Assembly (NCBI GenBank): GCA_015492245.1
Contig: WGFM01000032.1
Span: 6,231-70,230 of the forward strand
Direction of reading: 5' to 3'
From: Deltaproteobacteria bacterium
GTDB lineage: Bacteria > Desulfobacterota > GWC2-55-46 > DRQE01
Length of the DNA: 64,000 bases
Shown: positions 17,341 to 30,741 of the stretch, piece after piece
How positions within the stretch are numbered: the first letter of the stretch is position 1
How the letters are laid out: each line of letters starts with the position of its first letter
Position numbers and translations under genes: made by a program
Notes under the pieces: generated by a model
Seen by the model: the letters and a program-made list of their open reading frames with translations, nothing else
What the model was told of the DNA's origin: nothing
The model's database searches: none

Positions 17341-18498
17341 TTATCCCTTCATGGCCTTTATGAGCACCCCTGCAACCTCTGGCCTTGAGAACTCTGGCGG
17401 AGGTATCTCACCCTGTCTTAGCATCTCACGCACCTTTGTTCCAGAAAGGGTTATGTGGTCATGGGAGTCATGGGGGCAGGTCTTGTATGAAGCCATACCG
17501 CCACATCTTTTGCAGTAGAATGTGTAGTCGAAAAAGAGCGGAGTTATGCCTATCTTTTCGGGATCGAACTCGTCGAATATGTAGTGTGCATCGAATGTGC
17601 CGTAGTAGTTGCCCACACCTGCATGGTCTCTACCCACTATGAAGTGGGTGCACCCGTAGTTCTTGCGTATAAGGGCATGGAACACGGCCTCTCTGGGGCC
17701 TGCATACCTCATTGCCGCAGGAAACACAAGGAGCATCACCCTGTCCTTTGGATAGTAGTTCTCCATGAGGACCTCGTAGCAGCGCATCCTCACATCTGCA
17801 GGTATATCGTCTGCCTTGGTCTCACCCACAAGGGGGTGTATCATTAGTCCATCCACCACTTCGAGGGCACACTTCTGTATGTACTCGTGGGCACGGTGTA
17901 TGGGGTTACGGGTCTGAAAGCCCACCACCCTCTTCCATCCACGTTCCTGGAAGAGGGCCCTCGTCTGGGCAGGGTCAAGTCTGTATTGTTTGAAGTCCTC
18001 ATGTTCTGGCCTCTCTATGAGTGAGACCTTTCCACCAAGGAGCATATCTCCTGACTGGTAGAGTCTCTTTACCCCTGGGTGTGCCTCCTCCCTTGTGCCG
18101 TATACCTGGAGGGCCTCTTTATCCTTGTCGTGGGGGAATACCTCCTCTACCGCCATAAGGGCCAGTATGGTGCCATCTTCGCTGGTAAGGGCCACATCTT
18201 CGCCCTCTTTTATGGTGTCTGCGGTCTCTTTCGAGACCGCAAGGGTTACCGGAATGGTCCATGGCAGCCCACCTGCAAGGTGCATGGTGTCCATGGTGGA
18301 GTGGTAGTCCTCTTTTGTCATGAAGCCCTCGAGGGGGCTGTATGCACCTGTTGATATAAGCTCCAGATCAGATATTTCTTTTGGGCTGATGGCTATCTTC
18401 CTTAGCCCCTCTGCCCTCTTTCTCGCCTCCGTGAGCTCATCGCCTTTCAGCCTTCTGTCAACGAGCCTTCCCCCGTGGGGTGCAATGGTCTCTTTCAC
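17341..18498 (-). CDS. sat: Sulfate adenylyltransferase (ATP sulfurylase), homo-oligomeric type without APS-kinase domain
   Basis: 385 aa. [23 protein letters not shown] and PUA-like N-terminal domain are ATP-sulfurylase signatures. Confidence 0.9.
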
Positions 18499-18546: not shown

Positions 18547-19242
18547 TTACTGGTGCAGCCCGCACTCGGTCTTTTCTTTGCCAGCCCATCTGCCTGCCCT
18601 GGGGTCCTCGCCTGGATGGACGGGCCTTGTGCAGGGCTGGCAGCCTATGCTGGGATAGTTCTGGTCATGGAGCACATTGTATGGAACATCGTTATCCTTT
18701 ATGTAGTTCCATACATCGTCGTATGTCCATGCAACAAGCGGGTTTATCTTTACAAGGCCGAACCTGTTGTCCCATGTAACAACCGGGGCATTCGCCCTTG
18801 TTGGGGACTGCTCTCTCCTTATACCTGTTATCCATGCCTTGAGGTCCTTGAGGGCTGCCTCGAGGGGGCGCACCTTTCTTATCCTACAGCACTCATCAGG
18901 GTTTGTCTCCCAGAGCTTTGGGCCATACTTCTCTTCCATCTCCTCGAGGGTAATTTCTGCCTCGTACTTTTCGGGCTGTATGCCGTACTTCTCCTTCACC
19001 CTCTCTATCACATCGTAGGTCTCCTTGAAAAGCAGCCCTGTATCGAGGTAGAAGATCCTGGCATCCTTCCTTATCTTGACGAGCATATCCAGGAGCACCA
19101 CATCCTCTGCACCGAAGCTGCATGCAAGTGATATGTGGGGATGAAAGTTGTCAAGCGCCCACCCGATTACTTCCTGTGGGGATTTGCCCTCGAAGGAATC
19201 ACTTGTCTTTTTCAGTTCTTCTTCTGTCCACACTTTCTCCAT
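18547..19242 (-). CDS. cysH: Adenylylsulfate (APS) reductase, thioredoxin-dependent CysH family with Fe-S Cys cluster
   Basis: PAPS_reduct fold (SFGAEDVVLLDM). CC (ECCRIRK) plus C-terminal CQPCT pattern typical of APS- rather than PAPS-reductases. Catalytic ECGLH tail. Confidence 0.85.
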   Translation of the reverse strand: MEKVWTEEELKKTSDSFEGKSPQEVIGWALDNFHPHISLACSFGAEDVVLLDMLVKIRKDARIFYLDTGLLFKETYDVIERVKEKYGIQPEKYEAEITLEEMEEKYGPKLWETNPDECCRIRKVRPLEAALKDLKAWITGIRREQSPTRANAPVVTWDNRFGLVKINPLVAWTYDDVWNYIKDNDVPYNVLHDQNYPSIGCQPCTRPVHPGEDPRAGRWAGKEKTECGLHQ

Positions 19243-19248
19243 CTTCTC

Positions 19249-19722
19249 CTATACCTCCTCTTCGTCGAATATTTCCACCCTGCAGGATACCCGCTCCTTC
19301 AACTCATCCATCATCGAAGAAGAGAAGTATCTCCTCAGGGTGGTTGTCTTCTTCCTTATAGTTATTATAAGCTCTATGGAATATTTTTCTATTGTTTTTT
19401 TGATGATCTCGATAAAATCTCCCTCTTCCATCAGGGGTTCGAACTCCACGCCCTCTTCCATGGCCTTTATCTGCACCTTGCCGAGTTCTTCATAGCCCCG
19501 TTGTCTGGACTCCTTCATTATGGCCTCTGACAGCTGTGTAGAGGGCTTGTCCCCTATGAAGCCCACATCTGAGAACCGCTCGAGCGCCTCTTCTGCAACG
19601 GCCCTGTCGAGTATGTAGAGGGCGTAGAGCATGGCACCCTCTTTCTTTGCGGTCCTTACCGCATGTTCTATTGCCCTCTCGGATCTTCTCGAGCCCGGTA
19701 TAACGAGCACTATCCCCTTCAC
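19249..19722 (-). CDS. Universal stress protein (UspA family)
   Basis: GTG start at 19720-19722 preceded by GGAGGG RBS. USP alpha/beta signature IVLVIPGSRRSERAIEHAV...IELIITIRKK. Overlaps stop of the upstream transporter by 4 nt. The track's 283-aa ORF is an out-of-frame read-through. Confidence 0.65.
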   Translation of the reverse strand: MKGIVLVIPGSRRSERAIEHAVRTAKKEGAMLYALYILDRAVAEEALERFSDVGFIGDKPSTQLSEAIMKESRQRGYEELGKVQIKAMEEGVEFEPLMEEGDFIEIIKKTIEKYSIELIITIRKKTTTLRRYFSSSMMDELKERVSCRVEIFDEEEV

Positions 19723-21152
19723 CTCAACCCTCCGAGCCCTATGAGCGGCCAGTAGAACCTTGCCACGAGGTTGAAGACCACCCAAGAGGTTATGCTCATT
19801 ATGACACCTGCCTTTGCCATGTCCCTGATCGTAAGGTATGTGGAGGATACAGCTATGGCGTTTGCAGGTGTCGAAAGGGGCAGTGTGAAGGCAAGCCCTG
19901 CGGGCACCGCTATGGCATAGGTTACGAGCACAGGGTCTATGTTGACCCCTCCGGTAAGCCCTATTCCCACAGGCAGAAGTATGGCAATCACTGCGGCATT
20001 GCTTATCCCCTCTGTAAAGAGCAGTGCCAGAAGGCTCAGTACCGCCACTGCAAGCCATGGCTCCACCATCCATCCACCTATCGTGGACTGGGCTATCCAC
20101 ATGGCGGCCCCACTTCTTTCAAGGGCAGTGCCCATTATTATCGCCCCTCCGTACATGAGTATTATACCCCAGTTCACATACTCCTCTATGTCCTTCCAGC
20201 GCACAAGCCTCAACACGAAAAGGGCCACCACCGCTGCAAGGGACACCGTGGCAAGCCCAACCCTTGCGCCAAGGGTTGCCCATGCCACCACGGTAACCAC
20301 AAGGATTATGCCCACCATGTATTCATTGTAACCTATCTTTCCCATGGATTGTATACGCCTTTTGAGCACCTCGTGTGCCTTCTCCACACTGTCTATGTCC
20401 ATGGAGAACAACCTTGTAAGAAGAAAGTAACCAAACAGCAGCATTATCACCACAACGGGAAAGACCCCTACCGAGTAGCTTATGAAGTCTATGGTCCTGC
20501 CCGTGGTCTCCTTCAGTATGCCCAGGGCAAGGGGCACCCTTGCACCACCGAGGAATGTGGCGATCCCTCCTATGACGCAACCCCAGGCGAGCGAGAGAAA
20601 GAGCATCTTCGCATAGGTGGACCTACCTGGTCTCAGCCCAAGGCTCTTTGCGATCTCGAACACTATGGGAAATAGCATGGCAGCCACCGCATGTTCTGAC
20701 ATGAAGCAGGAAAGCAGCGCCGCCAGGAGGTATATGCTCAGAAGAAGCCTTGCCGGTGAACTACCGAATCTATCCATTATAACGAGGGCGATCCTGTTGG
20801 AAAGCCCTGAATGCATCACCGCACCTGCCAGTATGAAGGCACCAAGGATGAAGAATACCGCCTCGTTGCCGAAGAGCCCGTATACCTCTTCTTTTGGCAG
20901 TATGTCCACAAGCGGCACAAGTGCTATGGCAAAAAGGCTGGTTATGGCAAGGGGTATTATGTTGGACACCCACAGTATAAGACACAGGATGAACACCGCT
21001 ATGGCGTTCTTGCCCTCAGGGGTAAGCCCCTCGGGGGTGGGCATCTTTATGAGGTAATAGAACCCTGCCGCAAGGAGCACAAAGAAGGCAGGCCGAAGCC
21101 CCTTCAAGACAAGCAGCACCCATATGGACCTTCTGTCTATCTCTACAGCCAT
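19719..21152 (-). CDS. DASS/SLC13-family anion:sodium symporter (putative sulfate permease)
   Basis: 477 aa, about 12-14 TM helices, duplicated-repeat architecture with SNxA/TNxA-like hairpin tips (ISNAAVIAILLP). Genomic context with usp-cysH-sat. Confidence 0.7.
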   Translation of the reverse strand: MAVEIDRRSIWVLLVLKGLRPAFFVLLAAGFYYLIKMPTPEGLTPEGKNAIAVFILCLILWVSNIIPLAITSLFAIALVPLVDILPKEEVYGLFGNEAVFFILGAFILAGAVMHSGLSNRIALVIMDRFGSSPARLLLSIYLLAALLSCFMSEHAVAAMLFPIVFEIAKSLGLRPGRSTYAKMLFLSLAWGCVIGGIATFLGGARVPLALGILKETTGRTIDFISYSVGVFPVVVIMLLFGYFLLTRLFSMDIDSVEKAHEVLKRRIQSMGKIGYNEYMVGIILVVTVVAWATLGARVGLATVSLAAVVALFVLRLVRWKDIEEYVNWGIILMYGGAIIMGTALERSGAAMWIAQSTIGGWMVEPWLAVAVLSLLALLFTEGISNAAVIAILLPVGIGLTGGVNIDPVLVTYAIAVPAGLAFTLPLSTPANAIAVSSTYLTIRDMAKAGVIMSITSWVVFNLVARFYWPLIGLGGLR

Positions 21153-21208: not shown

Positions 21209-22402
21209 TCAATCCTCTTCTATCTCCTTTACCCTGAGCTTTCGCCTCAGGGTGGAGAGCCCCCAGGCGGTCTTGAGTCCCAGCCTTGTGCCATAGAACT
21301 TTTCGATTAGCCCGCTTATCCCACCAGTTTTCTCACCTGCAATGAGTCTACCCTCTATGGGTGTGGTTACAACACTTATATCCCTCATCCAGTTCATGTT
21401 TATCCCCTTCTTCTTTACCGCCCTGTAGAGGTGTCTGTATATGGGTATTATCACCTCTGCATTAAGGGGTTCTATCCTCAGGGCCCCACCAGGGCGTGGC
21501 CTGTATATGGGCAATATGGGCACCACGCCCATGTCTGTGAGAAAGTCTATGCCCATGCATGTGGAGCCAGGGGGTTCAAGCCCCACTATGAGGTGTGAGG
21601 CAACGGTGCCATTTGGAAATATGTCTGCCGCATATCTCAATGCCTCTATGTATCTTTTTCTGCCCACAAACCTTGCCCTGCCCGGGCAGAGTGCCTCGAA
21701 GAGCTCCTCGTCGAATATCTCGAGGTTGTAGAGCAGGGCATCTGCCCCAAGGGCATATGTCCTGTCTATCCAGTGATTGTTCTTCGGTGGAAGGGCTTCC
21801 ACTGCAACAAGGCAGTTGAACCTCTTCTTTATGGCCTCTATGTAGGGTGTGAGGAACCCTATGCCACCATCGTCGTCCTCGGTAAAGCCCGTGGAAAGGT
21901 ATATTATCTCTGACACTCCTTCCTCAAGCACTGCCGAGACGACCTCCACCACCTCGTCCACTGTATGGGTTCTGCCCGGTCTTTCATCGTATCCACCGGC
22001 ACAATAGCTGCACTCCACCTTCTTTTCGAAGAACACACACTCCTTCTTGGGTAGAATCAGCACATAGCTCCCGTGCACCGTGGCTATCTCGCTGTAGGGT
22101 GTGCCCTCTCCTGTCGTTCTCGAGAGAAACTCGGGCATTTTTACAGGCCTTACCTCCACCTCACCTGTGGTGTCTGATATGAGCCACCTTTCTCCCGCCT
22201 TCTTGAGAACATATGGAGAATCTCTGGTGAACTCCTCTCCGCAGGGCACATTCACAGGGGAACCCCCTGGAAGCACTATGTCCACTCCCTCACCTGCCCT
22301 GCCGTAGAAGGCAAGAGGGCCATCTTCCCGGGGAAGCCTTATCCCCCTGAGCATGAGGTCTATCTTCAATGTGCCGGGGTTGTTGAGGTAGCTCTTTTTC
22401 AT
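21209..22402 (-). CDS. Uncharacterised radical-SAM-like protein with non-canonical Cx8Cx2C motif and N-terminal about 110-aa extra domain
   Basis: 397 aa. KKECVFFEKKVECSYCAGGYDER cluster loop; GxIxGxxE-like IVGLEPPG; TIM-barrel-like periodicity. Its start abuts the stop of the E1 gene (22402/22403). Confidence 0.5.
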   Translation of the reverse strand: MKKSYLNNPGTLKIDLMLRGIRLPREDGPLAFYGRAGEGVDIVLPGGSPVNVPCGEEFTRDSPYVLKKAGERWLISDTTGEVEVRPVKMPEFLSRTTGEGTPYSEIATVHGSYVLILPKKECVFFEKKVECSYCAGGYDERPGRTHTVDEVVEVVSAVLEEGVSEIIYLSTGFTEDDDGGIGFLTPYIEAIKKRFNCLVAVEALPPKNNHWIDRTYALGADALLYNLEIFDEELFEALCPGRARFVGRKRYIEALRYAADIFPNGTVASHLIVGLEPPGSTCMGIDFLTDMGVVPILPIYRPRPGGALRIEPLNAEVIIPIYRHLYRAVKKKGINMNWMRDISVVTTPIEGRLIAGEKTGGISGLIEKFYGTRLGLKTAWGLSTLRRKLRVKEIEED

Positions 22403-23224
22403 CTAAGTTTCACAACTCGAGCGTTGCAGCTCGCAACTCTCCTCGTATGTTACAAGCTCTTTTATGGATGGCTCCTTGCCACAGAGCCTGCACCCGGGGT
22501 CTTTCCTTACCCTGACTTTTCTGAAGTCCATCCTCAATGCATCGAATATGAGGAGCCTTCCCGAAAGCCCCTCGCCTATCCTGAGTATCTCCTTTATGGT
22601 CTCAACAGCCTGCAACACCCCTATGACCCCTGCAAGGGCACCGAGTACGCCTGCCTCCTGGCAGCTTGGCACAAGCCCTGGTGGAGGGGGCTCTGGATAG
22701 AGACACCTGTAACATGGCGAGCCCTCATGGGGCTTGAAGACCGAAAGCTGCCCCTCGAAACGGAACATGCTGCCAGATACAAGAGGCCTATGCTCGAAAA
22801 AGGCCGCATCGTTTACGAGAAACCTTGTAGGGAAGTTGTCCGAGCCATCGAGCACAATATGGAACCCCCTTATGACCTCCCTTATGTTCTCCCTTGTGAG
22901 CCTCTCGTTGTAGGTTATAACCTCTACATCAGGGTTTAACTCCTCTATGGTCTTCTTTGCAGAGAGTGCCTTCGGGGTGCCAACCCTGGGGGTGGAGTGT
23001 ATTATCTGACGCTGAAGGTTGCTCAGATCCACCCTGTCTCCATCGGCGATCCCCACGGTGCCAACCCCTGCAGCTGCAAGATACATGAGCGCAGGCGAAC
23101 CAAGCCCACCTGCACCAACCACAAGGACCCTGGCATCGAGCAACTTTCGCTGCCCCCTGCCACCAACCTCTGGAAGTATGATGTGCCTGGAATACCGCTC
23201 TATCTGCTCCTCTGTAAAATCCAT
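22403..23224 (-). CDS. MoeZ/MoeB/ThiF-family E1-like sulfur-carrier-protein adenylyltransferase
   Basis: RYSRHIILPEVGGRGQRKL, nucleotide loop VVGAGGLGS, two CxxC pairs (CYRC...CRLC). Confidence 0.85.
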   Translation of the reverse strand: MDFTEEQIERYSRHIILPEVGGRGQRKLLDARVLVVGAGGLGSPALMYLAAAGVGTVGIADGDRVDLSNLQRQIIHSTPRVGTPKALSAKKTIEELNPDVEVITYNERLTRENIREVIRGFHIVLDGSDNFPTRFLVNDAAFFEHRPLVSGSMFRFEGQLSVFKPHEGSPCYRCLYPEPPPPGLVPSCQEAGVLGALAGVIGVLQAVETIKEILRIGEGLSGRLLIFDALRMDFRKVRVRKDPGCRLCGKEPSIKELVTYEESCELQRSSCET

Positions 23225-23297: not shown

Positions 23298-23702
23298 CTA
23301 TTTCTCGGCTATTTCTTCTTCTACAAACACATCGGCATCATCCAGCCTCCAGCACCTGACCTCAGTCTCTCTCCCGCCCCTTACTCCCACGATGAGGTAG
23401 AAGTATTCGGGCCATGCCCTGGTTCTGTCGAACTCAGATGGTTCTGCCGGGTGATCCGGGTGTGAGTGGTATATGCCGATTACCGCAAGCCCCCTTTTTG
23501 CTGCCTCTTTTTCCACCATGAGGAATTCCCGTGGGTCTATCTCGTAGCGGTCCTGCGCCCTTTCGGTGTTGATATTTTTAACCTTCACCGCCTCTAACAC
23601 CACCCCTTCCTTACCCAGAAGCAGTCCGCAGCATTCATTGGGGTAAGAGGCCCTTGCATTCTCACGCACCTTTTCTGCTGCATCCCTGACTATGCGAAGC
23701 AT
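23298..23702 (-). CDS. JAMM/MPN+ metalloprotease (Mec+/CysO-hydrolase-like)
   Basis: 134 aa with canonical JAMM motif E...HSHPDHPAEPSEFD (HxHx7Sx2D). Confidence 0.85.
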   Translation of the reverse strand: MLRIVRDAAEKVRENARASYPNECCGLLLGKEGVVLEAVKVKNINTERAQDRYEIDPREFLMVEKEAAKRGLAVIGIYHSHPDHPAEPSEFDRTRAWPEYFYLIVGVRGGRETEVRCWRLDDADVFVEEEIAEK

Positions 23703-23712
23703 CTTTCCGTAG

Positions 23713-24672
23713 TCAATCCTCCCACACCCTTGTGGAGAGGTACTTGTCTCCGCCGTCCGGGAACATGACGACTATGAGCCCCTCTTTGAGTGTCCTTGCA
23801 AGCCTCAATGCCCCGAGTAGAGCTGCCCCTGAGGACTGGCCTGCAAGTATGCCCTCTTCTTTTGCAAGCCTTCTTGTCATCTCGTAGGACTCTTCGGTGT
23901 CTGCCGGTATCTTATCGTCCAGTTCTTCCTCGTGGTATATGCCAGGCACGATGCTCGATGCCATGTGTTTAAGGCCCTCGAGCCCGTGAAGGGGGCTATC
24001 GGGCTCAACTGCTATGACCTTTATATCCTTTCTGAACTCCTTCAATCTTCTTCCAGTGCCCATTATGGTTCCCCCTGTGCCTATGCTTGCCACAAAGTGG
24101 GTTATTCTGCCCTCTGTCTGTGCGATTATCTCTGGCCCGGTGGTCTCGTAATGGGCAAGGGGGTTGGAGGGGTTGTTGTATTGATCAAGCTTGCAGTATT
24201 TCTCGGGGTTGTCCACATATAGCTTCCAGCAAAGCCTTATGGCCCCATCGGAGCCCTCCAAGGGGTCAGAGAATATCACCTTAGCCCCGTAGGCGCTGAG
24301 CATCTTCTTTCGCTCCTCACTCACATTGCCTGGCACCACAAGCTCCACCCTGTAGCCCTTGTGTGCGCCTATCCATGCATAGGCAATGCCTGTGTTGCCG
24401 GATGTTGAATCGAGTATTATCTTGTCCTTCGTAAGACGGCCTGCCTTCTCGGCGTCCTCTATCATCTTCAGTGCTGGCCTGTCCTTTACAGAACCCCCTG
24501 GATTGTAGCCCTCGAGCTTGGCATATATCTCCACCCCGGGAGGTATATCCCTGGTTACATTCCTTATATTGACGAGCGGGGTGTTGCCAACAAGGTCTAT
24601 AACAGAGCCCACCGCCTCCCTTACCCCTCCTGACCTTGTCCGGTAGTCCGCCCCTGCAACCCTTGTATCCAT
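23713..24672 (-). CDS. cysM: Cysteine synthase, CysM/CysK family (likely carrier-protein-thiocarboxylate-dependent)
   Basis: PLP-lysine motif GGSVKDR, GNTGIA, SIGTGGT. Start reassigned to the internal ATG at 24670-24672 (MDTRVAG...), 6 nt after RBS AGGGAGG. Confidence 0.85.
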   Translation of the reverse strand: MDTRVAGADYRTRSGGVREAVGSVIDLVGNTPLVNIRNVTRDIPPGVEIYAKLEGYNPGGSVKDRPALKMIEDAEKAGRLTKDKIILDSTSGNTGIAYAWIGAHKGYRVELVVPGNVSEERKKMLSAYGAKVIFSDPLEGSDGAIRLCWKLYVDNPEKYCKLDQYNNPSNPLAHYETTGPEIIAQTEGRITHFVASIGTGGTIMGTGRRLKEFRKDIKVIAVEPDSPLHGLEGLKHMASSIVPGIYHEEELDDKIPADTEESYEMTRRLAKEEGILAGQSSGAALLGALRLARTLKEGLIVVMFPDGGDKYLSTRVWED

Positions 24673-24722
24673 ACAAAAACCTCCCTGAAGTAAAGACAAA
24701 ATACCTTACTAACTTAGTCAAG

Positions 24723-24787: not shown

Positions 24788-25027
24788 TTACTCTATTATA
24801 TCGAGTTCTATGGGTTCCACCTTAACGCCTTTGTCGATGAAGAACTGTATTGCCCTGCCTATCTCCTCTTCGCTACCCTCGAGCTCAAGGGCCACAAGCC
24901 CCATGGTATCTGACACACATGCCTGCCGTATGTTGGTAACCACACGGAAGCGCTTGCCCGCCTCGTATATGAGGGGTTCCTTCACGAGCTCCCTCGGGTA
25001 TGTAAGGTAGACCCTTTTTTTCAACAC
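24788..25027 (-). CDS. Stand-alone NIL-domain protein (MetN C-terminal-like; sulfur-amino-acid-associated)
   Basis: 79 aa. PLIYEAGKRFRVVTNIRQACVSD.MGLVALELEGSEEEIGRAIQFFIDKGVKVEPIE matches the RF.V..NI..A...G.M.LEL.G....A...L...V.VE NIL pattern. Confidence 0.55.
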   Translation of the reverse strand: MLKKRVYLTYPRELVKEPLIYEAGKRFRVVTNIRQACVSDTMGLVALELEGSEEEIGRAIQFFIDKGVKVEPIELDIIE

Positions 25028-25302
25028 ATGCCTCCTGCTATTGCAGGAATTATGGAGAGCTCATCACCCTCTTTGAGCTCTGTATCCAGGTTGAGCTTGA
25101 ACCGTATGTCCTCATCGTTCACATAGAGGTTTACGAACTTTCTTATAGAGCCGTCTTCCTCGCAGATGCGCTCTTTTATACCTGGATACCTCTTTTCGAG
25201 GTCATCTATGACCTCTCTTACTGTTGTGCCCTCTGCAGTAACCTCGTCCTTGCCTTCTGTAAGTTTCCTCAGTGGTGTGGGTATCCTTACCTTTACAGCC
25301 AT
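25021..25302 (-). CDS. MoaD/ThiS/CysO-family sulfur carrier protein with C-terminal GG followed by 2-residue extension (..AIAGG-MC)
   Basis: 93-aa beta-grasp. C-terminal DELSIIPAIAGGMC resembles MoaD ...VAIIPPVSGG but with MC after the di-glycine. Confidence 0.75.
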   Translation of the reverse strand: MAVKVRIPTPLRKLTEGKDEVTAEGTTVREVIDDLEKRYPGIKERICEEDGSIRKFVNLYVNDEDIRFKLNLDTELKEGDELSIIPAIAGGMC

Positions 25303-25332: not shown

Positions 25333-25575
25333 TTATTCGCCTCTTTCTATAAGGAGCCTGAAGTGGTCGTCCTCTTTCTTCACATCTATTATCCTGTGTC
25401 CCTCTTCTTTTATGCTCTTTGGCACATTCTGGATGGGCTCTCCACTGTCGAGCACCACCTCGAGCACCTCGCCCTTCTCCATGCTCTCGAGCTTGAGCTT
25501 GGTCTTAACGAAGTTCATGGGGCAGAGCACCCCTCTCAGGTCAAGGGTATCTACCGGTCTTACTTCTGCTGACAT
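25333..25575 (-). CDS. tusA: TusA/SirA-like sulfurtransferase
   Basis: 80 aa with LDLRGVLCPMNFVKTK active-site Cys motif (CPxP variant). Confidence 0.7.
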   Translation of the reverse strand: MSAEVRPVDTLDLRGVLCPMNFVKTKLKLESMEKGEVLEVVLDSGEPIQNVPKSIKEEGHRIIDVKKEDDHFRLLIERGE

Positions 25576-26534
25576 GCTGCCTCCTTTGCTCCGAGCACCC
25601 TGTCGCCGAAGACATCTTTCATGAATTCAAGGTACTTATCGACCCCCACGCGTTCCAGGGTCTTTCCAATCCTCTCACCCCTCATGCCATTTGCCATATA
25701 CCACTCTATGGTCTTCTCGATTACCTCTGCCACCTTCTCGTCAGGCACAAAGAGTGCCACCTCTTCTGCCTCCATGGGCCATCTACCGTGCTTTCCACCA
25801 ACCCGTACGAGGTGTCCATAGCGCTTTGCCCTCCAGGCACCTGTTGGGCATGCACGGATGCAATCGCCACAGTAGATGCATTTTTCAGGATAGTAGATGG
25901 GTTTACCCGTATCGGGATCACTCTCTATGGCGTCCTCCTTACATGCCTCGGCACATATGGTGCAGCCCGTGCATGTGGGTTCCTCCCACTCGGGCTCCAC
26001 CACACCCTGAAAGCCCAGGTCCATCTCTCTGGTTCTTGCACAATCTATCGGGCAGCCAGAGAAGGATATTTTGAACTTGTGGTGTGTGGGTGTGCCGAAG
26101 AACCTTTCATCCACCATCTTTGCAAGGGCCTGGGTGTCGGTAAGCCCATTCGGGTTGTACTCACAGCCGCCACAGGCAGTGGGCACCCTCACCCTTGGCC
26201 CGCAGGAGGCAACCTTCCAGCCTATGGCCTCAAGCTCCTTCACAAGCTGGGGGAACTCCTTGTAGTCCACATAGAGTATCTCTATGGATTGGCGAAAGCT
26301 CAGGTGTATGACGCCCTTCTTGCTGTACTTGTGGGCTATCTTCGAGATTTCTATGAGCTTATCTGTTGGAACCCTTCCCCCAGGGCATCGAAGCCTCACG
26401 GTGAAAAGATCACGCTGGCGCTGTTTTATAAAGCCACCTGTCTTGAGCTCGCCAAAATCGAGTTTTTTTGTCTCTCCGTCGAGGCTTACCTCGACCCTTG
26501 TGGTCTTATCCTCAATGAAACGGTCCATGGACAC
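25560..26534 (-). CDS. Small sulfite/nitrite-reductase-family protein (siroheme/4Fe-4S-binding half-domain) with inserted 2x[4Fe-4S] ferredoxin domain; assimilatory-type low-MW sulfite reductase / AsrC-like
   Basis: NiR/SiR ferredoxin-like half domain. Siroheme-cluster cysteines SCGPRVRVPTACGGC...SGCPIDCA. Ferredoxin motifs CTGCTICAEAC and CIYCGDCIRACP. Confidence 0.7.
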   Translation of the reverse strand: MSMDRFIEDKTTRVEVSLDGETKKLDFGELKTGGFIKQRQRDLFTVRLRCPGGRVPTDKLIEISKIAHKYSKKGVIHLSFRQSIEILYVDYKEFPQLVKELEAIGWKVASCGPRVRVPTACGGCEYNPNGLTDTQALAKMVDERFFGTPTHHKFKISFSGCPIDCARTREMDLGFQGVVEPEWEEPTCTGCTICAEACKEDAIESDPDTGKPIYYPEKCIYCGDCIRACPTGAWRAKRYGHLVRVGGKHGRWPMEAEEVALFVPDEKVAEVIEKTIEWYMANGMRGERIGKTLERVGVDKYLEFMKDVFGDRVLGAKEAACQQK

Positions 26535-26599: not shown

Positions 26600-27853
26600 T
26601 TAGCCCTCCAGGGCATATTTTTCATCCATCTTCTTTACCAGCTCATCGAAGTCCTTGAGGCTTGCGTTTATGGTGGGCACCTCTTCGAGTCTTCCATGGA
26701 GTGCCTCCTGGGTCTTGAGCCCGTTGCCTGTTACGGAGACCACTATGGACTCGTCCCTGGGGATTCGGCCCTGTTCTATGAGCTTCTTTGTAACCCCCAG
26801 GGTAACCCCACCGGCTGTCTCTGCAAATATGCCCTCCCTTTCTGCCAGAAGCTTTATCGCCTCTACGATTTCCTCATCCGACACATCCTCTGCCCATCCG
26901 CCACTCTCTCTTATGGTCTTCGCAGAGTAGTAGCCATCGGCAGGGTTGCCTATCGCAAGGGATTTTGCAATGGTGTTGGGTCTTACAGGCTCTATGAGCT
27001 CTTTACCCCTCTTTACCGCTGTAACTATGGGTGCACAGCCCGTTGCCTGTGCCCCGTAGACCTTCGCATCCATGTTGTCCACAAGCCCGAGCATATGAAG
27101 CTCTCTGTATGCCTTCCACACCTTCGTTATGAGCGAGCCCCCTGCCATTGGCACAACCGTGTGTCTGGGCAGCCTCCAGCCCAGCTGTTCTGCAATCTCG
27201 AAGCCGAAGGTCTTCGAGCCCTCGGCATAATAGGGCCTTATGTTTATGTTCACGAATGCCCAGCCGTATTTGCCCGCAATCTCACTGCACAGGCGGTTTA
27301 CCTCATCGTATGTGCCCCTTATACCCACGACCCTTGCCCCGTATACGAGGGTTCCCACAATCTTCGTGGGCTCGAGATCGAAGGGTATGAACACATAGCT
27401 CTCCATACCACAGGCAGTGGCATTTGCAGCCACAGAGTTCGCAAGGTTGCCTGTGGACGCACAGGAGGCCACCTTGAAGCCCATCTCCAGTGCCCTGGAG
27501 ATGGCAACAGAGACCACCCTGTCCTTGAAAGAGAGGGTGGGATAGTTTACCGCATCGTTCTTTATGTAGAGCTCCTTTACACCCAGGGCCTTCTCAAGGT
27601 TTCTCGCCCTTATAAGGGGCGTAAAACCAACTTCTCTGCCCACCGTGGGCTCTCCATCTATGGGTAGAAGCTCCCTGTAGCGCCACATGTTCTGTGGCCT
27701 CTTCTCTATGGTCTCTTTCGACAGGCTCTTCTTGATTTTACCATACTCGTAGACCACCTCGAGGGGACCAAAGCAGTACTCGCACACATGCAAAGCCTTC
27801 CTGGGATACTCCCTGCCACACTCTCTGCATCTCAGTGCCTTCATAAAGCCCAT
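26600..27853 (-). CDS. thrC: Threonine-synthase-family PLP enzyme with N-terminal zinc ribbon; candidate phosphohomoserine sulfhydrylase given SAM-riboswitch control
   Basis: CRECG...CEYC ribbon and PLP-lysine motif TLSFKDR, ThrC fold. Directly downstream of a SAM-I riboswitch. Confidence 0.75.
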   Translation of the reverse strand: MGFMKALRCRECGREYPRKALHVCEYCFGPLEVVYEYGKIKKSLSKETIEKRPQNMWRYRELLPIDGEPTVGREVGFTPLIRARNLEKALGVKELYIKNDAVNYPTLSFKDRVVSVAISRALEMGFKVASCASTGNLANSVAANATACGMESYVFIPFDLEPTKIVGTLVYGARVVGIRGTYDEVNRLCSEIAGKYGWAFVNINIRPYYAEGSKTFGFEIAEQLGWRLPRHTVVPMAGGSLITKVWKAYRELHMLGLVDNMDAKVYGAQATGCAPIVTAVKRGKELIEPVRPNTIAKSLAIGNPADGYYSAKTIRESGGWAEDVSDEEIVEAIKLLAEREGIFAETAGGVTLGVTKKLIEQGRIPRDESIVVSVTGNGLKTQEALHGRLEEVPTINASLKDFDELVKKMDEKYALEG

Positions 27854-27879: not shown

Positions 27880-28078
27880 TAAAAAAAACCTCTTCCTTAC
27901 TTTTTCCCTTTGAAGTTAAGAAGAGGTCTTAACGACTCTTCTTATCTTCCAGGAGCCCTTTAACTGGAAGACTCCTGCTGGAATTAGCACCGGGCGTTTC
28001 ATCCCCCAAGGGGGATAAAACCGGTTGCTGTGGCTTCACGGGGCCAGTTCCCTCCACCACTCTGGATAAGAAGATTAT
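27880..28078 (-). promoter_or_regulatory. SAM-I (S-box) riboswitch: aptamer (about 27936-28076) plus intrinsic terminator (27881-27927)
   Basis: Minus strand reads UCUUAUCCAGAGUGGUGGAGGGAACUGGCCCCGUGAAGCCACAGCAACC...GGUGCUAAUUCCAGCAG...GGAAGAUAAGAAGAG, matching S-box conserved positions. Then hairpin GACCUCUUC...GAAGAGGU + UUUUUUUU, then RBS GGGAGGA and the thrC ATG. Confidence 0.85.
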
Positions 28079-28189: not shown

Positions 28190-29071
28190 CTAAGTGTTAT
28201 CGAGCAGGAACTCCTTGAACTTCCTTGTTGCAGGTGAAGGACTTCTCTTTGAATGTGTTATTATATGGAAGTATCGTTCTATGCCGACACCCTTTATCTT
28301 GACCTCCTTGAGCATCTTTCTTCTCACATGCTCACATATGGCAAGTCTGGACATGAAGGCAAGCCCGAGCCCGCTCTTTATTGCACCCACAAGGGCCTGT
28401 GTGGAGCCCATCTCTGCCACTATGTTGAGTCCTTCAGGCTCTATGCCTGCCTCTCTTATGGCCCTTTCTGTCTCCATCCTGGTTCCAGAGCCCCTTTCCC
28501 TTACCACAAGTGGTATATGGGAAAGCTCTTCCCTTGAGACCCTCGATTTCTTGAAGGAAGAAGGTGCTGCCAGCACTATCTCGTCGGATACAAACCTTTC
28601 CAGCAATAGATGTTTATCCTTCACCACCGAGCCCACCACCCCTATGTCCACCCTTCCCTCTGACACCATGTGGCTTACCTTTTCTGTATCCGCTATGGTT
28701 AGTGATGGAAAGACCCCCGGGTACAGTCTTCTGAACTCTGCTATCCTCTGTGGCAGTATGTACTCCCCTGGTATGGTGCTCGCCCCTATTGTGAGTGTAC
28801 CCTGCACCGAGCCGCCGAACTCTTTCAGGGACTGGCTTGCCTCCTCTTTGAGTCTTACAATCTCCTTGGCGTATCTGTAGAGTATGGCTCCCTCCTTGGT
28901 GGGCACCACCTTTCTGCCGAGTCTGTCCAGCAGTCTTGTGGTGAGGGTTTCCTCAAGGGTTCTTATGTGAATACTTATGGTGGGTTGGGTAAGATTCAGA
29001 GACTCTGCAGCCTGGGAAAATCCTCCTTCCTCAACAACTCTGCAGAATATCTCAAGAAGTCTCAACTCCAC
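28190..29071 (-). CDS. LysR-family transcriptional regulator
   Basis: N-terminal wHTH MELRLLEIFCRVVEEGGFSQAAESLNLTQPTISIHIRTLE, C-terminal LysR substrate-binding domain. Confidence 0.85.
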   Translation of the reverse strand: MELRLLEIFCRVVEEGGFSQAAESLNLTQPTISIHIRTLEETLTTRLLDRLGRKVVPTKEGAILYRYAKEIVRLKEEASQSLKEFGGSVQGTLTIGASTIPGEYILPQRIAEFRRLYPGVFPSLTIADTEKVSHMVSEGRVDIGVVGSVVKDKHLLLERFVSDEIVLAAPSSFKKSRVSREELSHIPLVVRERGSGTRMETERAIREAGIEPEGLNIVAEMGSTQALVGAIKSGLGLAFMSRLAICEHVRRKMLKEVKIKGVGIERYFHIITHSKRSPSPATRKFKEFLLDNT

Positions 29072-29472: not shown

Positions 29473-30741
29473 TCATCTGTAGGTTCCACAGAGTCTCTCC
29501 GTGTAGAAAGGAAAACCCTCGCACAGCCTTCTCACCTCTTCTTTTATACGGCAGAGAAGTTTCTCGTCGTCAGGGGCTTTTAGCACCCTGTCTATGAAGT
29601 CTGCTATTGTGCGCATCTCTCCCTCTTTCATGCCCCTCGTGGTAACTGCGGGAACCCCTATCCTTATCCCGCTTGTTACGAAGGGGCTTCTCGTCTCAAA
29701 AGGTATGGTGTTCTTGTTTACCGTTATGCCTGCCCTGTGGAGGGCCTCTTCGGCCTCCTTGCCGGTAAGGCCTGTCTTTGTAAGGTCCACGAGCATAAGA
29801 TGGGTATCTGTTCCACCTGATATTAGCTCGTAGCCACGGCTCAAGAGTTCTTCTGCAAGGGTCTTTGCATTCTTCAGTATCTGCTTCTGATACTCCTTGA
29901 ACCCAGGCTCAAGGGCCTCTTTCAGTGCCACGGCCTTTGCGGCTATTATGTGCATAAGGGGGCCACCCTGTATGCCAGGGAATATCTCCTTGTCCATGGC
30001 CTTTGCGAACTCCTCCCTGCACATAATCATGCCTGCCCTTGGGCCTCTGAGTGTCTTGTGTGTGGTGGTGGTTACAAACTCTGCATGGGGCACGGGGCTT
30101 GGATGAAGCCCTGCTGCCACAAGCCCTGCTATATGGGCTATGTCTACCATTATGTGGGCACCAACCTCGTCTGCGATCTGGCGGAATGCCTCAAAATCTA
30201 TAACCCTGGGATAGGCACTCGCACCAACCACTATGAGTTTTGGCCTGTGCTTTCCTGCGAGCTCACGAACCTGGTCCATATCTATACGGTGATCCTCCTT
30301 TCTTACGCCATAGAACAGGAAGTCGTAGAGCCTGCCAGAAAAGTTGACAGGGCTTCCATGGGTGAGATGCCCACCATGGGTAAGGTCCATGCCCAGCACC
30401 CTATCCCCCGGCTTCAGGGTGGCCATGTAGACCGCCATGTTCGCCTGGGAGCCGGAGTGGGGCTGCACATTCACATGCTCACAGCCGAACAGCTTCTTCG
30501 CCCTCTCTATGGCGAGCCTCTCGGCTATGTCCACAAACTCGCATCCACCGTAGTAGCGCCTGCCAGGATAACCCTCTGCATACTTGTTTGTGAGCACACT
30601 TCCCACGGCCTCGAGCACCCGCTCGCTTACAAGGTTTTCAGAGGCGATGAGTTCCAGCTTGTATTCCTGCCTCTCTGTCTCAAGCCTTATCGCCTCGTAT
30701 ATCTGTGGATCGAATTCTTTAAGCAGTGATTCTTTCCTCAT
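29473..30741 (-). CDS. glyA: Serine hydroxymethyltransferase
   Basis: 422 aa. SHMT signatures [29 protein letters not shown]-lysine region [15 protein letters not shown]. Confidence 0.95.

Follow-up and report, generated by a model that had tools for sequence, protein, structure and literature searches.

The sulfur-carrier pathways that yield cysteine and homocysteine are considered to be complete with four or five enzymes. To our knowledge, the described examples, the CysO and the MetM/MetO pathways, include no radical-SAM-like component. Among radical SAM proteins, TIGR04043 (the MSMEG_0568 family) corresponds to the radical SAM member of the nitrilase "Nit1C" clusters. These clusters are described in PMC1199592 and the MetM/MetO pathway in the GapMind preprint (10.1101/2024.10.14.618325); PMC9477430 includes CX8CX2C groups in its list of motif variants among radical SAM proteins. 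Here we analyse a 64,000-nt stretch of a Deltaproteobacteria genome (contig WGFM01000032.1; hereafter the window), in which an uncharacterised, predicted Fe-S protein is encoded between the E1 of a sulfur-carrier system and a presumed sulfate importer. The gene is conserved, wedged in the same place, in several uncultured lineages, where it is sometimes fused to a neighbour. Literature searches combining radical SAM with thiocarboxylate/CysO, DASS, CX8CX2C and MSMEG_0568 returned no description of this rSAM-like protein.

Results

A radical-SAM-like gene in an operon for sulfur assimilation

The rSAM-like gene belongs to a 13-gene operon lying behind a SAM riboswitch. The genes encode, in order, a ThrC-like (MetM) enzyme, sulfite reductase, TusA, ThiS, a NIL protein, CysM, JAB, E1, the rSAM-like protein, DASS, Usp, CysH and ATP sulfurylase (Table 1). 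From its gene content, the operon is predicted to serve sulfate uptake, sulfate reduction and the ThiS-dependent synthesis of cysteine and homocysteine. The ThrC-like enzyme, assigned by context, is probably a MetM-type thiocarboxylate-dependent homocysteine synthase. A SAM riboswitch also precedes the homologous operon in six of seven other loci. The NIL protein was found in 78 related loci, and in one locus (L159) TusA is fused to sulfite reductase. Of the MoeB/MoeZ profiles, the E1 covers the ThiF portion alone (positions 121-385 of 387 in PRK08762; 15-274 of 392 in PRK07878).

Table 1. Features of the operon and of the rSAM-like gene in the window.
Feature	Position	Strand	Basis or remark
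SAM riboswitch (S-box) leader	27939..28072	minus	Rfam RF00162 83.8 bits, full length
ThrC-like PLP enzyme	26600..27853	minus	PALP 230 bits; thrC-like matches
Small sulfite reductase (NIR_SIR + ferredoxin insert)	25560..26534	minus	Profile matches
TusA sulfurtransferase, LCPMN motif	25333..25575	minus	Pfam TusA 82.4 bits; overlaps 3' end of sulfite reductase gene
ThiS/MoaD-type sulfur carrier ending ...AGG-MC	25021..25302	minus	Pfam ThiS 72.8 bits; NF041918
Stand-alone NIL domain protein, 79 aa	24788..25027	minus	Pfam NIL 48 bits
CysM-type cysteine synthase	23713..24699	minus	TIGR01138 381 bits
JAB/Mec+-type metalloprotease	23298..23702	minus	Prok-JAB 100 bits
ThiF/MoeB-type E1 without rhodanese domain	22403..23224	minus	Pfam ThiF 272.9 bits, residues 11-246
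rSAM-like ORF	21209..22402	minus	397 aa; ATG 22402-22400; stop 21211-21209
N-terminal beta-rich domain (residues 1-118, ~115 aa)	22049..22402	minus	Model secondary structure and alignment conservation
Cx8Cx2C triad CVFFEKKVECSYC, residues 122-134 (C122, C131, C134)	22001..22039	minus	Presumed ligands of a site-differentiated [4Fe-4S] cluster
YNLEIFD strand, residues 225-231	21710..21730	minus	Counterpart of SAM ribose-binding beta-4 motif, BioB/LipA/ThiH branch
HLIVGLEPPG, residues 270-279, GxIxGxxE-like beta-5 strand	21566..21595	minus	Conservation; model strand at 267-271
C-terminal helical extension, residues 336-397 (~60 aa)	21212..21397	minus	Subfamily-specific; ends in RRxLRV
DASS-family anion:Na+ symporter, presumed sulfate importer	19719..21152	minus	Pfam Na_sulph_symp 214.5 bits; TIGR00785 250 bits
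Usp-family protein, 157 aa	19249..19722	minus	Pfam Usp 43.4 bits; codon-like DNA conservation
CysH APS/PAPS reductase	18547..19242	minus	Profile matches
ATP sulfurylase	17341..18498	minus	Profile matches

The reading frame proposed for the rSAM-like gene in the initial annotation was confirmed in length and exact coordinates and lies on the minus strand; the plus-strand reading of the same interval was rejected, its translation being riddled with stops. The gene had been described as starting one base after the E1 stop codon. The coupling is real, and more precisely the start is the very next base: the E1 stop codon TAG occupies 22405-22403 and the ATG abuts it without spacer (...gaaactTAGATGaaaaag). 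The DASS gene follows 56 nt downstream. The GTG start of usp overlaps the DASS stop codon (GTGA), and at least 83 loci, as well as L163, have a Usp gene after DASS. Usp, translationally coupled to DASS, is another typical accessory or regulatory module. Neither Usp nor TusA, the NIL protein, the riboswitch or the link to DASS (the tightest of the gene) had been remarked upon in the initial annotation.

The protein is a member of the radical SAM superfamily outside its characterised subfamilies

The gene product, predicted to be soluble and about 45 kDa in mass, is made of three parts: an N-terminal beta-rich domain, a radical SAM barrel and a helical tail. Residues 131-274 match Pfam Radical_SAM (PF04055) with 35.8 bits (gathering score 29.5), and the NCBIfam model NF045502 ("variant_rSAM") scores 172.2 bits against a curated cut-off of 125. 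The earlier proposal that the protein is radical-SAM-like, with Cx8Cx2C in place of the canonical motif, is thus borne out. A search for homologues yielded 385 sequences at E<=1e-3, the top E-values ranging from 1e-150 to 1e-269. These homologues, the residues invariant among the close ones (see below) and the profile scores above cut-off show that the reading frame is not a chance one. None of the searches gave confident homology to a well-characterised family outside the radical SAM superfamily.

A partial or full (beta/alpha) TIM-barrel core is present, and model comparison places the fold closest to LipA, HydG, HydE, PylB, BioB and ThiH. While the single sequence found no meaningful match in the PDB, a profile search reached ThiH alone (E 2e-4), the nearest in sequence of the solved structures. 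The barrel belongs to the LipA/BioB/ThiH/HydE branch. As the initial annotation had anticipated, the protein fits no characterised subfamily and only the generic NF045502 domain model. TIGR04043 reaches 122.4 bits over residues 15-336, below its cut-off of 303.7; the LipS2 model gives 19 bits (cut-off 270); the HMM search reported no LipA or BioB model, and no ThiH, HydG or CofH match came near cut-off. A SPASM/twitch enzyme was also rejected: neither Pfam nor NCBIfam gave a SPASM match, and residues 336-397 are helical and free of cysteine.

That the BioB/LipA/HydE/ThiH-like branch is rich in cofactor enzymes, together with a weak likeness to LipS2 across family members (19-31 bits), would be consistent with a cofactor or maturation enzyme merely travelling with the operon, acting for example on sulfite reductase or a prosthetic group and having no direct role at carrier or transporter. 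However, the protein falls far below the cut-off of every cofactor-enzyme model, and the gene's neighbourhood (see below) makes this reading highly improbable.

The extra N-terminal domain, previously put at about 110 residues, is there: some 118 residues precede the first cluster cysteine. It opens with an NPGxLKxDLxxxG helix in which, in the alignments, K13 is nearly invariant and G20 invariant. The NF045502 profile includes this domain, so it is a feature of the whole family rather than of this operon. In the barrel, the aromatic Y133 precedes the third cysteine of the triad. The YNLEIFD strand, which we take to be the ribose motif by comparison with the BioB and LipA structures, aligns with "IYQEVYNEE" of ThiH in the profile-to-PDB match. 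The Glu of the GGE motif of radical SAM enzymes is replaced (STGF). The RRKLRV motif of the tail spans residues 386-391 (codons 21247-21230).

Triad and SAM-contact residues are conserved together, and some members lack the triad

In 24 close homologues (59-88% identity), C122, C131, C134, Y133, G274 and E276 are invariant, and E228 is likewise invariant within this close clade. The triad is present in 30 of 36 divergent homologues; the canonical CX3CX2C spacing is absent from the rSAM-like protein. Position 228 is acidic in 27 of the 30 triad-bearing homologues versus three of the six triad-less ones. Position 276 is E or D in all 30 triad-bearing sequences, and G274 is invariant, which bears out the GxIxGxxE-like strand (IVGLEPPG) pointed out earlier. 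The SAM-contact motifs (Y133, N226/E228, G274/E276) are therefore not only present but conserved together with the triad.

The C-terminal RRxLRV helix is better conserved across the subfamily than the Fe-S triad. R387 is invariant, and R386, L389, R390 and V391 are at least 90% conserved, triad-less members included; in the other variant_rSAM relatives the similarity ends at about residues 305-357. The triad was lost in about nine of 37 divergent representatives (about a quarter), all still full-length. These proteins retain K13, G20, Y216, G219, D221, P263, G265, G274, P295, W338 and RRxLRV, and DASS still lies downstream in all three for which downstream DNA is readable. Their full length, their core residues and their DASS neighbour suggest a common function independent of the cluster, and the existence of such orthologue-like members implies that SAM cleavage is not universal in the subfamily.

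Sulfur insertion, one of the roles first suggested for the protein, finds no support in these data. The additional cysteines (C239, present in 22 of 30; C54 and C197, clade-specific) form no conserved three-ligand set, which renders insertion of the LipA/BioB type unlikely; the absence of a SPASM or twitch domain and the full-length members lacking the triad point the same way. LipA/BioB/MiaB-type insertion was set aside on the ground that none of the three cysteines is conserved subfamily-wide.

A genuine radical SAM enzyme acting elsewhere in the carrier pathway is a different matter. The protein would bind [4Fe-4S] and SAM and generate a 5'-deoxyadenosyl radical, whose target might be an intermediate attached to ThiS or E1, or else a small-molecule precursor of the cysteine/homocysteine branch; JAB would then free the product from ThiS. 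The proposal amounts to the initial one minus the sulfur-donor cluster. The triad, the aromatic residue, the acidic ribose residue and the GxIxGxxE glutamate, invariant in the close clade and co-varying with the triad subfamily-wide, all speak for it, as does a fold nearest to LipA, HydG, HydE, PylB, BioB and ThiH with ThiH as best sequence match. Against it count the lack of an auxiliary cluster and of a SPASM domain, and the triad-less quarter of the representative clusters, of which P0178 (L163) keeps both carrier genes and DASS and P0163 (L078) keeps carrier genes. Moreover, the CysO/CysM/Mec/MoeZ and MetM/MetO pathways have no step needing radical chemistry, and a SAM-consuming step would be awkward in an operon induced at low SAM, unless SAM were used catalytically.

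The gene mostly lies between a ThiF-like gene and a presumed sulfate importer in divergent lineages

Neighbourhoods were surveyed in 154 related loci (40-88% identity) retrieved in a metagenome scan with an 11-sequence alignment. All carriers are uncultured, metagenome-assembled genomes (Thermodesulfobacteriota-like and Binatia). A search with the DASS protein returned only close relatives from the same lineages. X denotes the rSAM-like gene.

A ThiF-like gene stands immediately upstream in 118 of 124 evaluable loci, and DASS comes next downstream in 121 of 125; these counts do not represent independent events, since they come from few, related lineages. The fixed place in a sulfur-carrier operon, noticed in the initial annotation, is thus strongly conserved, as is co-occurrence with sulfur-carrier genes. 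The tightest link of the gene is with DASS: besides the adjacency in these 121 loci, one lineage carries a fusion of the two. This fusion (P0165 cluster) is genuine. It comprises four 881-aa members, found on contigs as long as 31.5 kb, and its two halves are homologous, almost end to end, to the rSAM-like and DASS proteins of the window (the window DASS is 42% identical to the transporter half of P0165). In P0165, about 20-45 residues separate the RRxLRV helix from the DASS domain that follows it. Read-through frames between the two genes in the high-GC loci L134 and L137 are open off-frames and not fusions.

DASS is retained in divergent contexts as well, even away from carrier genes, which is counted in favour of a partnership with it. 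Two loci, Rrf2-ATPS-X-DASS (L162) and Flavoprotein-X-DASS (L160), have no carrier genes nearby; others read ThiS-X-DASS-Usp (L163), ThiS-X-DASS (L077) and, on one further contig, ThiF-X-DASS. Conversely, a marine subclade (L143, L151, L152, L154) has ThiS-JAB-X with no DASS downstream, and in L075 X is fused to JAB (ThiF-ThiS-JAB::X-PHP). The link to the carrier system can thus exist without an adjacent transporter.

These minimal modules and the JAB fusion argue for the radical enzyme, as does the start of X, which abuts or overlaps the stop of the ThiF-like gene in other loci too, even where that gene is a degenerate paralogue (Binatia-type loci). Adjacency and fusion to DASS are left unexplained by it. 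Taking both sides together, we consider carrier-linked radical chemistry a serious, if somewhat doubtful, rival. The place between ThiF-like gene and DASS is kept across differing types of sulfite reductase (small and Dsr-like in the window, CysI-like in L159) and in Binatia-type loci with no sulfite reductase detected; this and the fusions to JAB and DASS speak against a travelling cofactor enzyme.

The absence of a rhodanese domain from E1 and the translational coupling of the rSAM-like gene to it invite yet another explanation: a non-radical Fe-S relay or reductase in which the free iron of a three-Cys [4Fe-4S] cluster would carry sulfide or persulfide from sulfite reductase/TusA to ThiS-adenylate on E1, or which would reduce a ThiS-acyl-disulfide, in both cases standing in for the missing rhodanese. 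TusA, placed after sulfite reductase and fused to it in L159, makes protein-bound sulfur trafficking plausible. However, TusA already provides a carrier, and sulfide itself reacts directly with ThiS-type acyl-adenylates in vitro. Furthermore, the SAM-contact motifs conserved with the triad would be needless for pure sulfide binding, triad-less members persist, and in L160 and L162 the contexts hold DASS and ATP sulfurylase but no nearby ThiS or E1. We judge such a relay quite unlikely. That sulfur transfer is already covered by TusA is counted in favour of a partnership with the transporter.

Discussion

Our preferred reading, to which we assign a probability of roughly 0.4, is that the rSAM-like protein would bind an Fe-S cluster and SAM and serve in the cytoplasm as a partner of the sulfate importer, linking uptake to the sulfur-carrier machinery, and not a sulfur-inserting enzyme. 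With all cluster and SAM-contact motifs intact, the window copy would bind a [4Fe-4S] cluster through C122, C131 and C134, and SAM at the free iron. The basic C-terminal helix may dock on the cytoplasmic face of DASS while the protein contacts the E1/ThiS/JAB machinery, so that entry of sulfate would be coupled to carrier loading. The Fe-S/SAM site might then act as a sensor (SAM being the end product of the pathway) or as a slow catalytic switch, as opposed to a site of sulfur insertion. Adjacency to or fusion with DASS across divergent lineages, including the three triad-less members with readable downstream DNA, indirectly favours this partnership. So do the C-terminal helix, which surpasses the triad in conservation and neighbours the transporter domain in the fusion, and the coupling of DASS to Usp. 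The triad, Y133, E228 and E276, invariant in the close clade, would also fit a working radical enzyme. We know of no precedent for a radical-SAM-fold protein as transporter accessory or SAM sensor.

A more specific version, rather unlikely as judged from sequence and gene order, is that a radical-SAM-derived, Fe-S/SAM-sensing subunit gates the importer and tethers it to ThiS/E1/JAB, adding SAM feedback at the protein level to that of the riboswitch. If so, no earlier protein of radical SAM fold would be known in the role of transporter accessory or metabolite sensor, and some lineages would already have shed the cluster. More generally, a transporter-coupled sensor or adaptor would widen the uses of the radical SAM fold and add a new layer of control on sulfate assimilation. 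Should the protein prove a real radical enzyme, the thiocarboxylate pathways of these anaerobes would hold an unknown chemical step. Either way, a CX8CX2C radical SAM group without assigned function gains a concrete, testable biological setting.

Within the superfamily, NF045502 and the CX8CX2C megaclusters 4-6-x of RadicalSAM.org share the N-terminal domain, the barrel and a lengthened spacing (Cx8-13Cx2C). NF045502 is, however, a generic model with no function attached, whose other members lack the RRxLRV extension and the sulfur-carrier/DASS context. TIGR04043, the best named relative, has the same variant_rSAM architecture but no C-terminal extension. Its nitrilase-type multi-gene operon does not occur at the rSAM-like locus, which has no nitrilase, GNAT or AIR-synthase-like genes and where the neighbours are E1, DASS, ThiS, CysM and others of the operon. 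LipA/LIAS, archaeal LipS2 and BioB are only 14-15% identical to the rSAM-like protein and space their cysteines as Cx3Cx2C instead of Cx8Cx2C; conserved ligands for a sacrificial auxiliary cluster are absent from the rSAM-like protein. ThiH, the tyrosine lyase of thiazole synthesis, works alongside ThiS, ThiF and ThiG, whereas the present operon has no ThiG, is under SAM and not TPP control, and makes cysteine and homocysteine.

On the transport side, the STAS domain of SulP proteins, TrkA_C/RCK_C inserts in the DASS superfamily and Usp partners serve anion transporters as cytoplasmic modules with an accessory or regulatory role. Like the rSAM-like protein, they are soluble domains whose genes lie beside that of an anion transporter or which are joined to its cytoplasmic N-terminus, and at the present locus a Usp gene is coupled to DASS on its far side. 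The likeness is by analogy only, their fold being wholly different from a radical SAM barrel. As to the carrier pathways themselves, the E1 of Mycobacterium and Streptomyces has a rhodanese domain that the E1 of the window lacks. With the CysO-CysM-Mec+-MoeZ pathway of Mycobacterium and the MetM/MetO pathway of Streptomyces the operon shares ThiS, CysM, JAB, E1 and the ThrC-like enzyme, along with genes of sulfate reduction.

Gene X and its operon

The initial annotation had placed a 397-aa ORF directly after the E1 gene. This ORF, encoding X, the radical-SAM-like protein under study, is real, though it lies on the minus strand (ATG at 22402); a plus-strand reading was ruled out, as that frame is full of stops. 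The proposed coupling was borne out too: the TAG stop of E1 immediately precedes the ATG of X. The cysteine triad (CVFFEKKVECSYC) corresponds to C122, C131 and C134, the predicted strand to HLIVGLEPPG at residues 270-279, and the extra N-terminal stretch to about 118 residues ahead of the first cluster cysteine.

Features of the X operon and of related loci (operon genes in transcriptional order; window positions unless a locus is named)
Feature	Position	Strand	Remarks
Serine hydroxymethyltransferase	29473-30741	minus	just upstream of the riboswitch-led operon
LysR-family regulator	28190-29071	minus	just upstream of the riboswitch-led operon
SAM riboswitch (S-box)	28072-27939	minus	Rfam 83.8 bits, full-length; directly 5' of ThrC-like gene
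ThrC-like PLP enzyme	26600-27853	minus	first gene; probably MetM-type
Small sulfite reductase		minus
TusA sulfurtransferase	25575-25333	minus	LCPMN motif; overlaps 3' end of sulfite reductase gene
ThiS sulfur carrier	25302-25021	minus	C-terminus AIAGG-MC
Stand-alone NIL-domain protein	25027-24788	minus	overlaps ThiS stop
CysM		minus
JAB protease		minus
E1 (ThiF family)	22403-23224	minus	273 aa
X	21209-22402	minus	397 aa
DASS transporter	21152-19719	minus	presumed sulfate importer
Usp-family protein	19722-19249	minus	157 aa; GTG overlaps DASS stop codon (GTGA)
CysH		minus
ATP sulfurylase		minus	last gene
Sulfite reductase with C-terminal TusA domain	L159 3576-5927		783 aa; immediately upstream of X::DASS
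Degenerate ThiF-like gene	L137 9303-10004
Degenerate ThiF-like gene	L099 9333-9983
X with acidic tail	L137 9983-11194
X with acidic tail	L154 433-1683

With the riboswitch immediately in front of the ThrC-like gene, SAM probably represses all 13 genes, which combine sulfate uptake, sulfate reduction and carrier-dependent cysteine and homocysteine synthesis. Of 7 other loci tested, 6 likewise have a SAM riboswitch ahead of the homologous operon, distant and Binatia-type ones included. ThiS extends two residues beyond Gly-Gly and would thus have to be trimmed before adenylation, a step for which the JAB protease of the operon is the presumed agent. In MetN, the NIL domain binds methionine and has a regulatory role, so the stand-alone NIL protein may be a second small-molecule sensor. 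The previously unlisted Usp gene fills what had looked like a gap of 476 nt separating DASS from CysH. Residues 8-32 of the ThrC-like enzyme give an N-terminal NinF-like zinc-ribbon match under the Pfam cut-off; the ThrC-like gene of locus L163 has the same faint match.

Conservation of the neighbourhood

Homologues of X are detectable in a large protein collection (n=385). Gene order was compared in 74 loci from species-representative genomes, all uncultured "Deltaproteobacteria"/Thermodesulfobacteriota MAGs (49-88% identity), and in 80 further metagenome loci, retrieved by searching with a divergent subset of sequences (identity to this query 40-52%, save in two loci), which have relatives carrying the name Candidatus Binatia. 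The expected co-occurrence with ThiF was found: of the 124 loci that could be evaluated, 118 have a ThiF-like gene and 4 a JAB gene as the neighbour within 700 bp upstream. Downstream, X is followed by DASS in 121/125, and DASS in turn by Usp in at least 83 loci plus L163; as the loci were drawn from few related uncultured lineages, all these counts overstate independence. The exceptions without DASS downstream are a marine subclade (L143, L151, L152, L154) arranged ThiS-JAB-X, and L075, which has a PHP-domain gene after X; no DASS match was found downstream of X in L022.

Gene order in divergent loci (<50% identity; "::", gene fusion)
Locus	Arrangement
L077	NIL-CysM-JAB-ThiS-X-DASS
L163	NIL-CysM-JAB-ThiS-X-DASS-Usp
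Further contig	ThiF-X-DASS
L159	ThiS-NIL-CysM-ThiF-(sulfite reductase::TusA)-(X::DASS)-CysD-CysN
L075	ThiF-ThiS-(JAB::X)-PHP
L162	Rrf2-ATP sulfurylase-X-DASS
L160	Flavoprotein-X-DASS

The X::DASS fusion forms a cluster of four 881-aa proteins, on contigs up to 31.5 kb. Both halves align with their window counterparts over nearly full length, and the C-terminal helix of X, carrying the RRxLRV motif, sits just ahead of the transporter domain. The adjoining sulfite reductase::TusA fusion in L159 suggests that reduced sulfur is passed to a protein carrier rather than freed as sulfide. Of the MoeB/MoeZ profiles, E1 matches just the ThiF part; it lacks a rhodanese domain, which X might replace by relaying sulfur, or acting as a reductase, through a non-radical Fe-S centre. 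TusA next to sulfite reductase already fills the carrier role, and such a function is improbable.

Binatia-type operons have two ThiF-like genes. The one directly before X, its stop codon overlapping the X start, is a degenerate second paralogue in which the first 49 profile positions alone match, the glycine-rich loop is lost (reading GAGPAA) and the two CxxC pairs persist. This paralogue may be an inactive E1 that serves as an adaptor or heterodimer half.

C-terminal extension and loss of the triad

The proteins whose match to X reaches the C-terminus make up a subfamily, marked by an extension of 60 additional helical residues that ends in RRxLRV, of which R387 is invariant; in other variant_rSAM proteins the match ends at about residues 305-357. 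Many members (for example P0122, P0134 and the two in the table) carry a conserved acidic tail after the motif, ...V(S/D)(E/D)S(F/Y/L)(D/T)S(S/A)(G/H/N)L-COOH, that could be a docking peptide. The X of the window lacks it, ending ...RVKEIEED.

The triad, Y133, G274, E276 and C239 are invariant across 24 sequences (59-88% identity). Its triad and SAM-contact motifs being intact and conserved together, the X of the window most likely carries a [4Fe-4S] cluster and binds SAM. The triad is absent in about 9 of some 37 full-length RRxLRV-bearing representatives. An alignment of 36 sequences shows that K13, G20, G180, P206, Y216, G219, D221, P263, G265, G274, P295, W338 and RRxLRV are retained in the 6 triad-less members; the SAM-contact positions follow another pattern, with an acidic residue at 228 in 27/30 triad-bearing versus 3/6 triad-less members, and at 276 in 30/30 versus 4/6. 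DASS lies directly downstream in the three triad-less members with readable flanks. Among the further cysteines no three-member set is conserved (C54 and C197 are confined to particular clades; C239 occurs in 22/30) and the extension contains none, which rules out a LipA/BioB/MiaB-like auxiliary cluster and a SPASM/twitch domain, respectively.

Possible roles of X

What appears to survive every rearrangement, even cluster loss, is the DASS partnership together with the C-terminal helix; the link to ThiF-like/ThiS/JAB seems the second most stable. Genomic context, on which all readings of function rest, thus favours a role for X on the cytoplasmic side as partner of the DASS (sulfate) importer (probability roughly 0.4); X would also touch the carrier machinery, and its Fe-S/SAM site would serve as sensor or switch. 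A genuine radical SAM enzyme working on an intermediate bound to the carrier ranks next, as a serious but less likely rival; to our knowledge, no radical step is required in the published CysO and MetO pathways. The Fe-S relay or reductase comes third, and a hitch-hiking cofactor enzyme last, as a very remote prospect. Literature searches of incomplete coverage found no paper on radical-SAM-like proteins beside DASS transporters or in Cys/Met operons with sulfur carriers.

Relation to known radical SAM families

The suspected radical SAM affiliation was upheld by profiles: X passes Pfam Radical_SAM (35.8 bits; cut-off 29.5) and NCBIfam NF045502 "variant_rSAM" (172.2; cut-off 125). Among named families, TIGR04043 (MSMEG_0568 family) comes closest, but its 122 bits are far under the cut-off of 303.7; LipS2 gives a trace match (19 bits against 270). 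An AlphaFold2 model (pLDDT 74, pTM 0.77) comprises an N-terminal beta-rich domain, the anticipated (beta/alpha) barrel and C-terminal helices; the triad-bearing loop has low confidence, as expected since the cluster is absent from the model. Three distant variant_rSAM relatives (P0230, P0248, P0255; 768-937 aa), with long N-terminal extensions, Cx8-10Cx2C motifs and AT-rich-style sequences, form a separate, likewise uncharacterised branch.

X belongs to the radical SAM superfamily and, as a generic domain family, to NF045502; it lies outside the TIGR04043, LipS2/LipA, BioB, ThiH and SPASM families. CX8CX2C groups are listed by RadicalSAM.org as motif variants of the superfamily (PMC9477430), so that the spacing in X represents an uncharacterised variant already on record rather than a new fold. 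Both its fold and its motif variant have been catalogued before; X is a distinct subfamily by its own C-terminal module and its fixed, unusual partnership.
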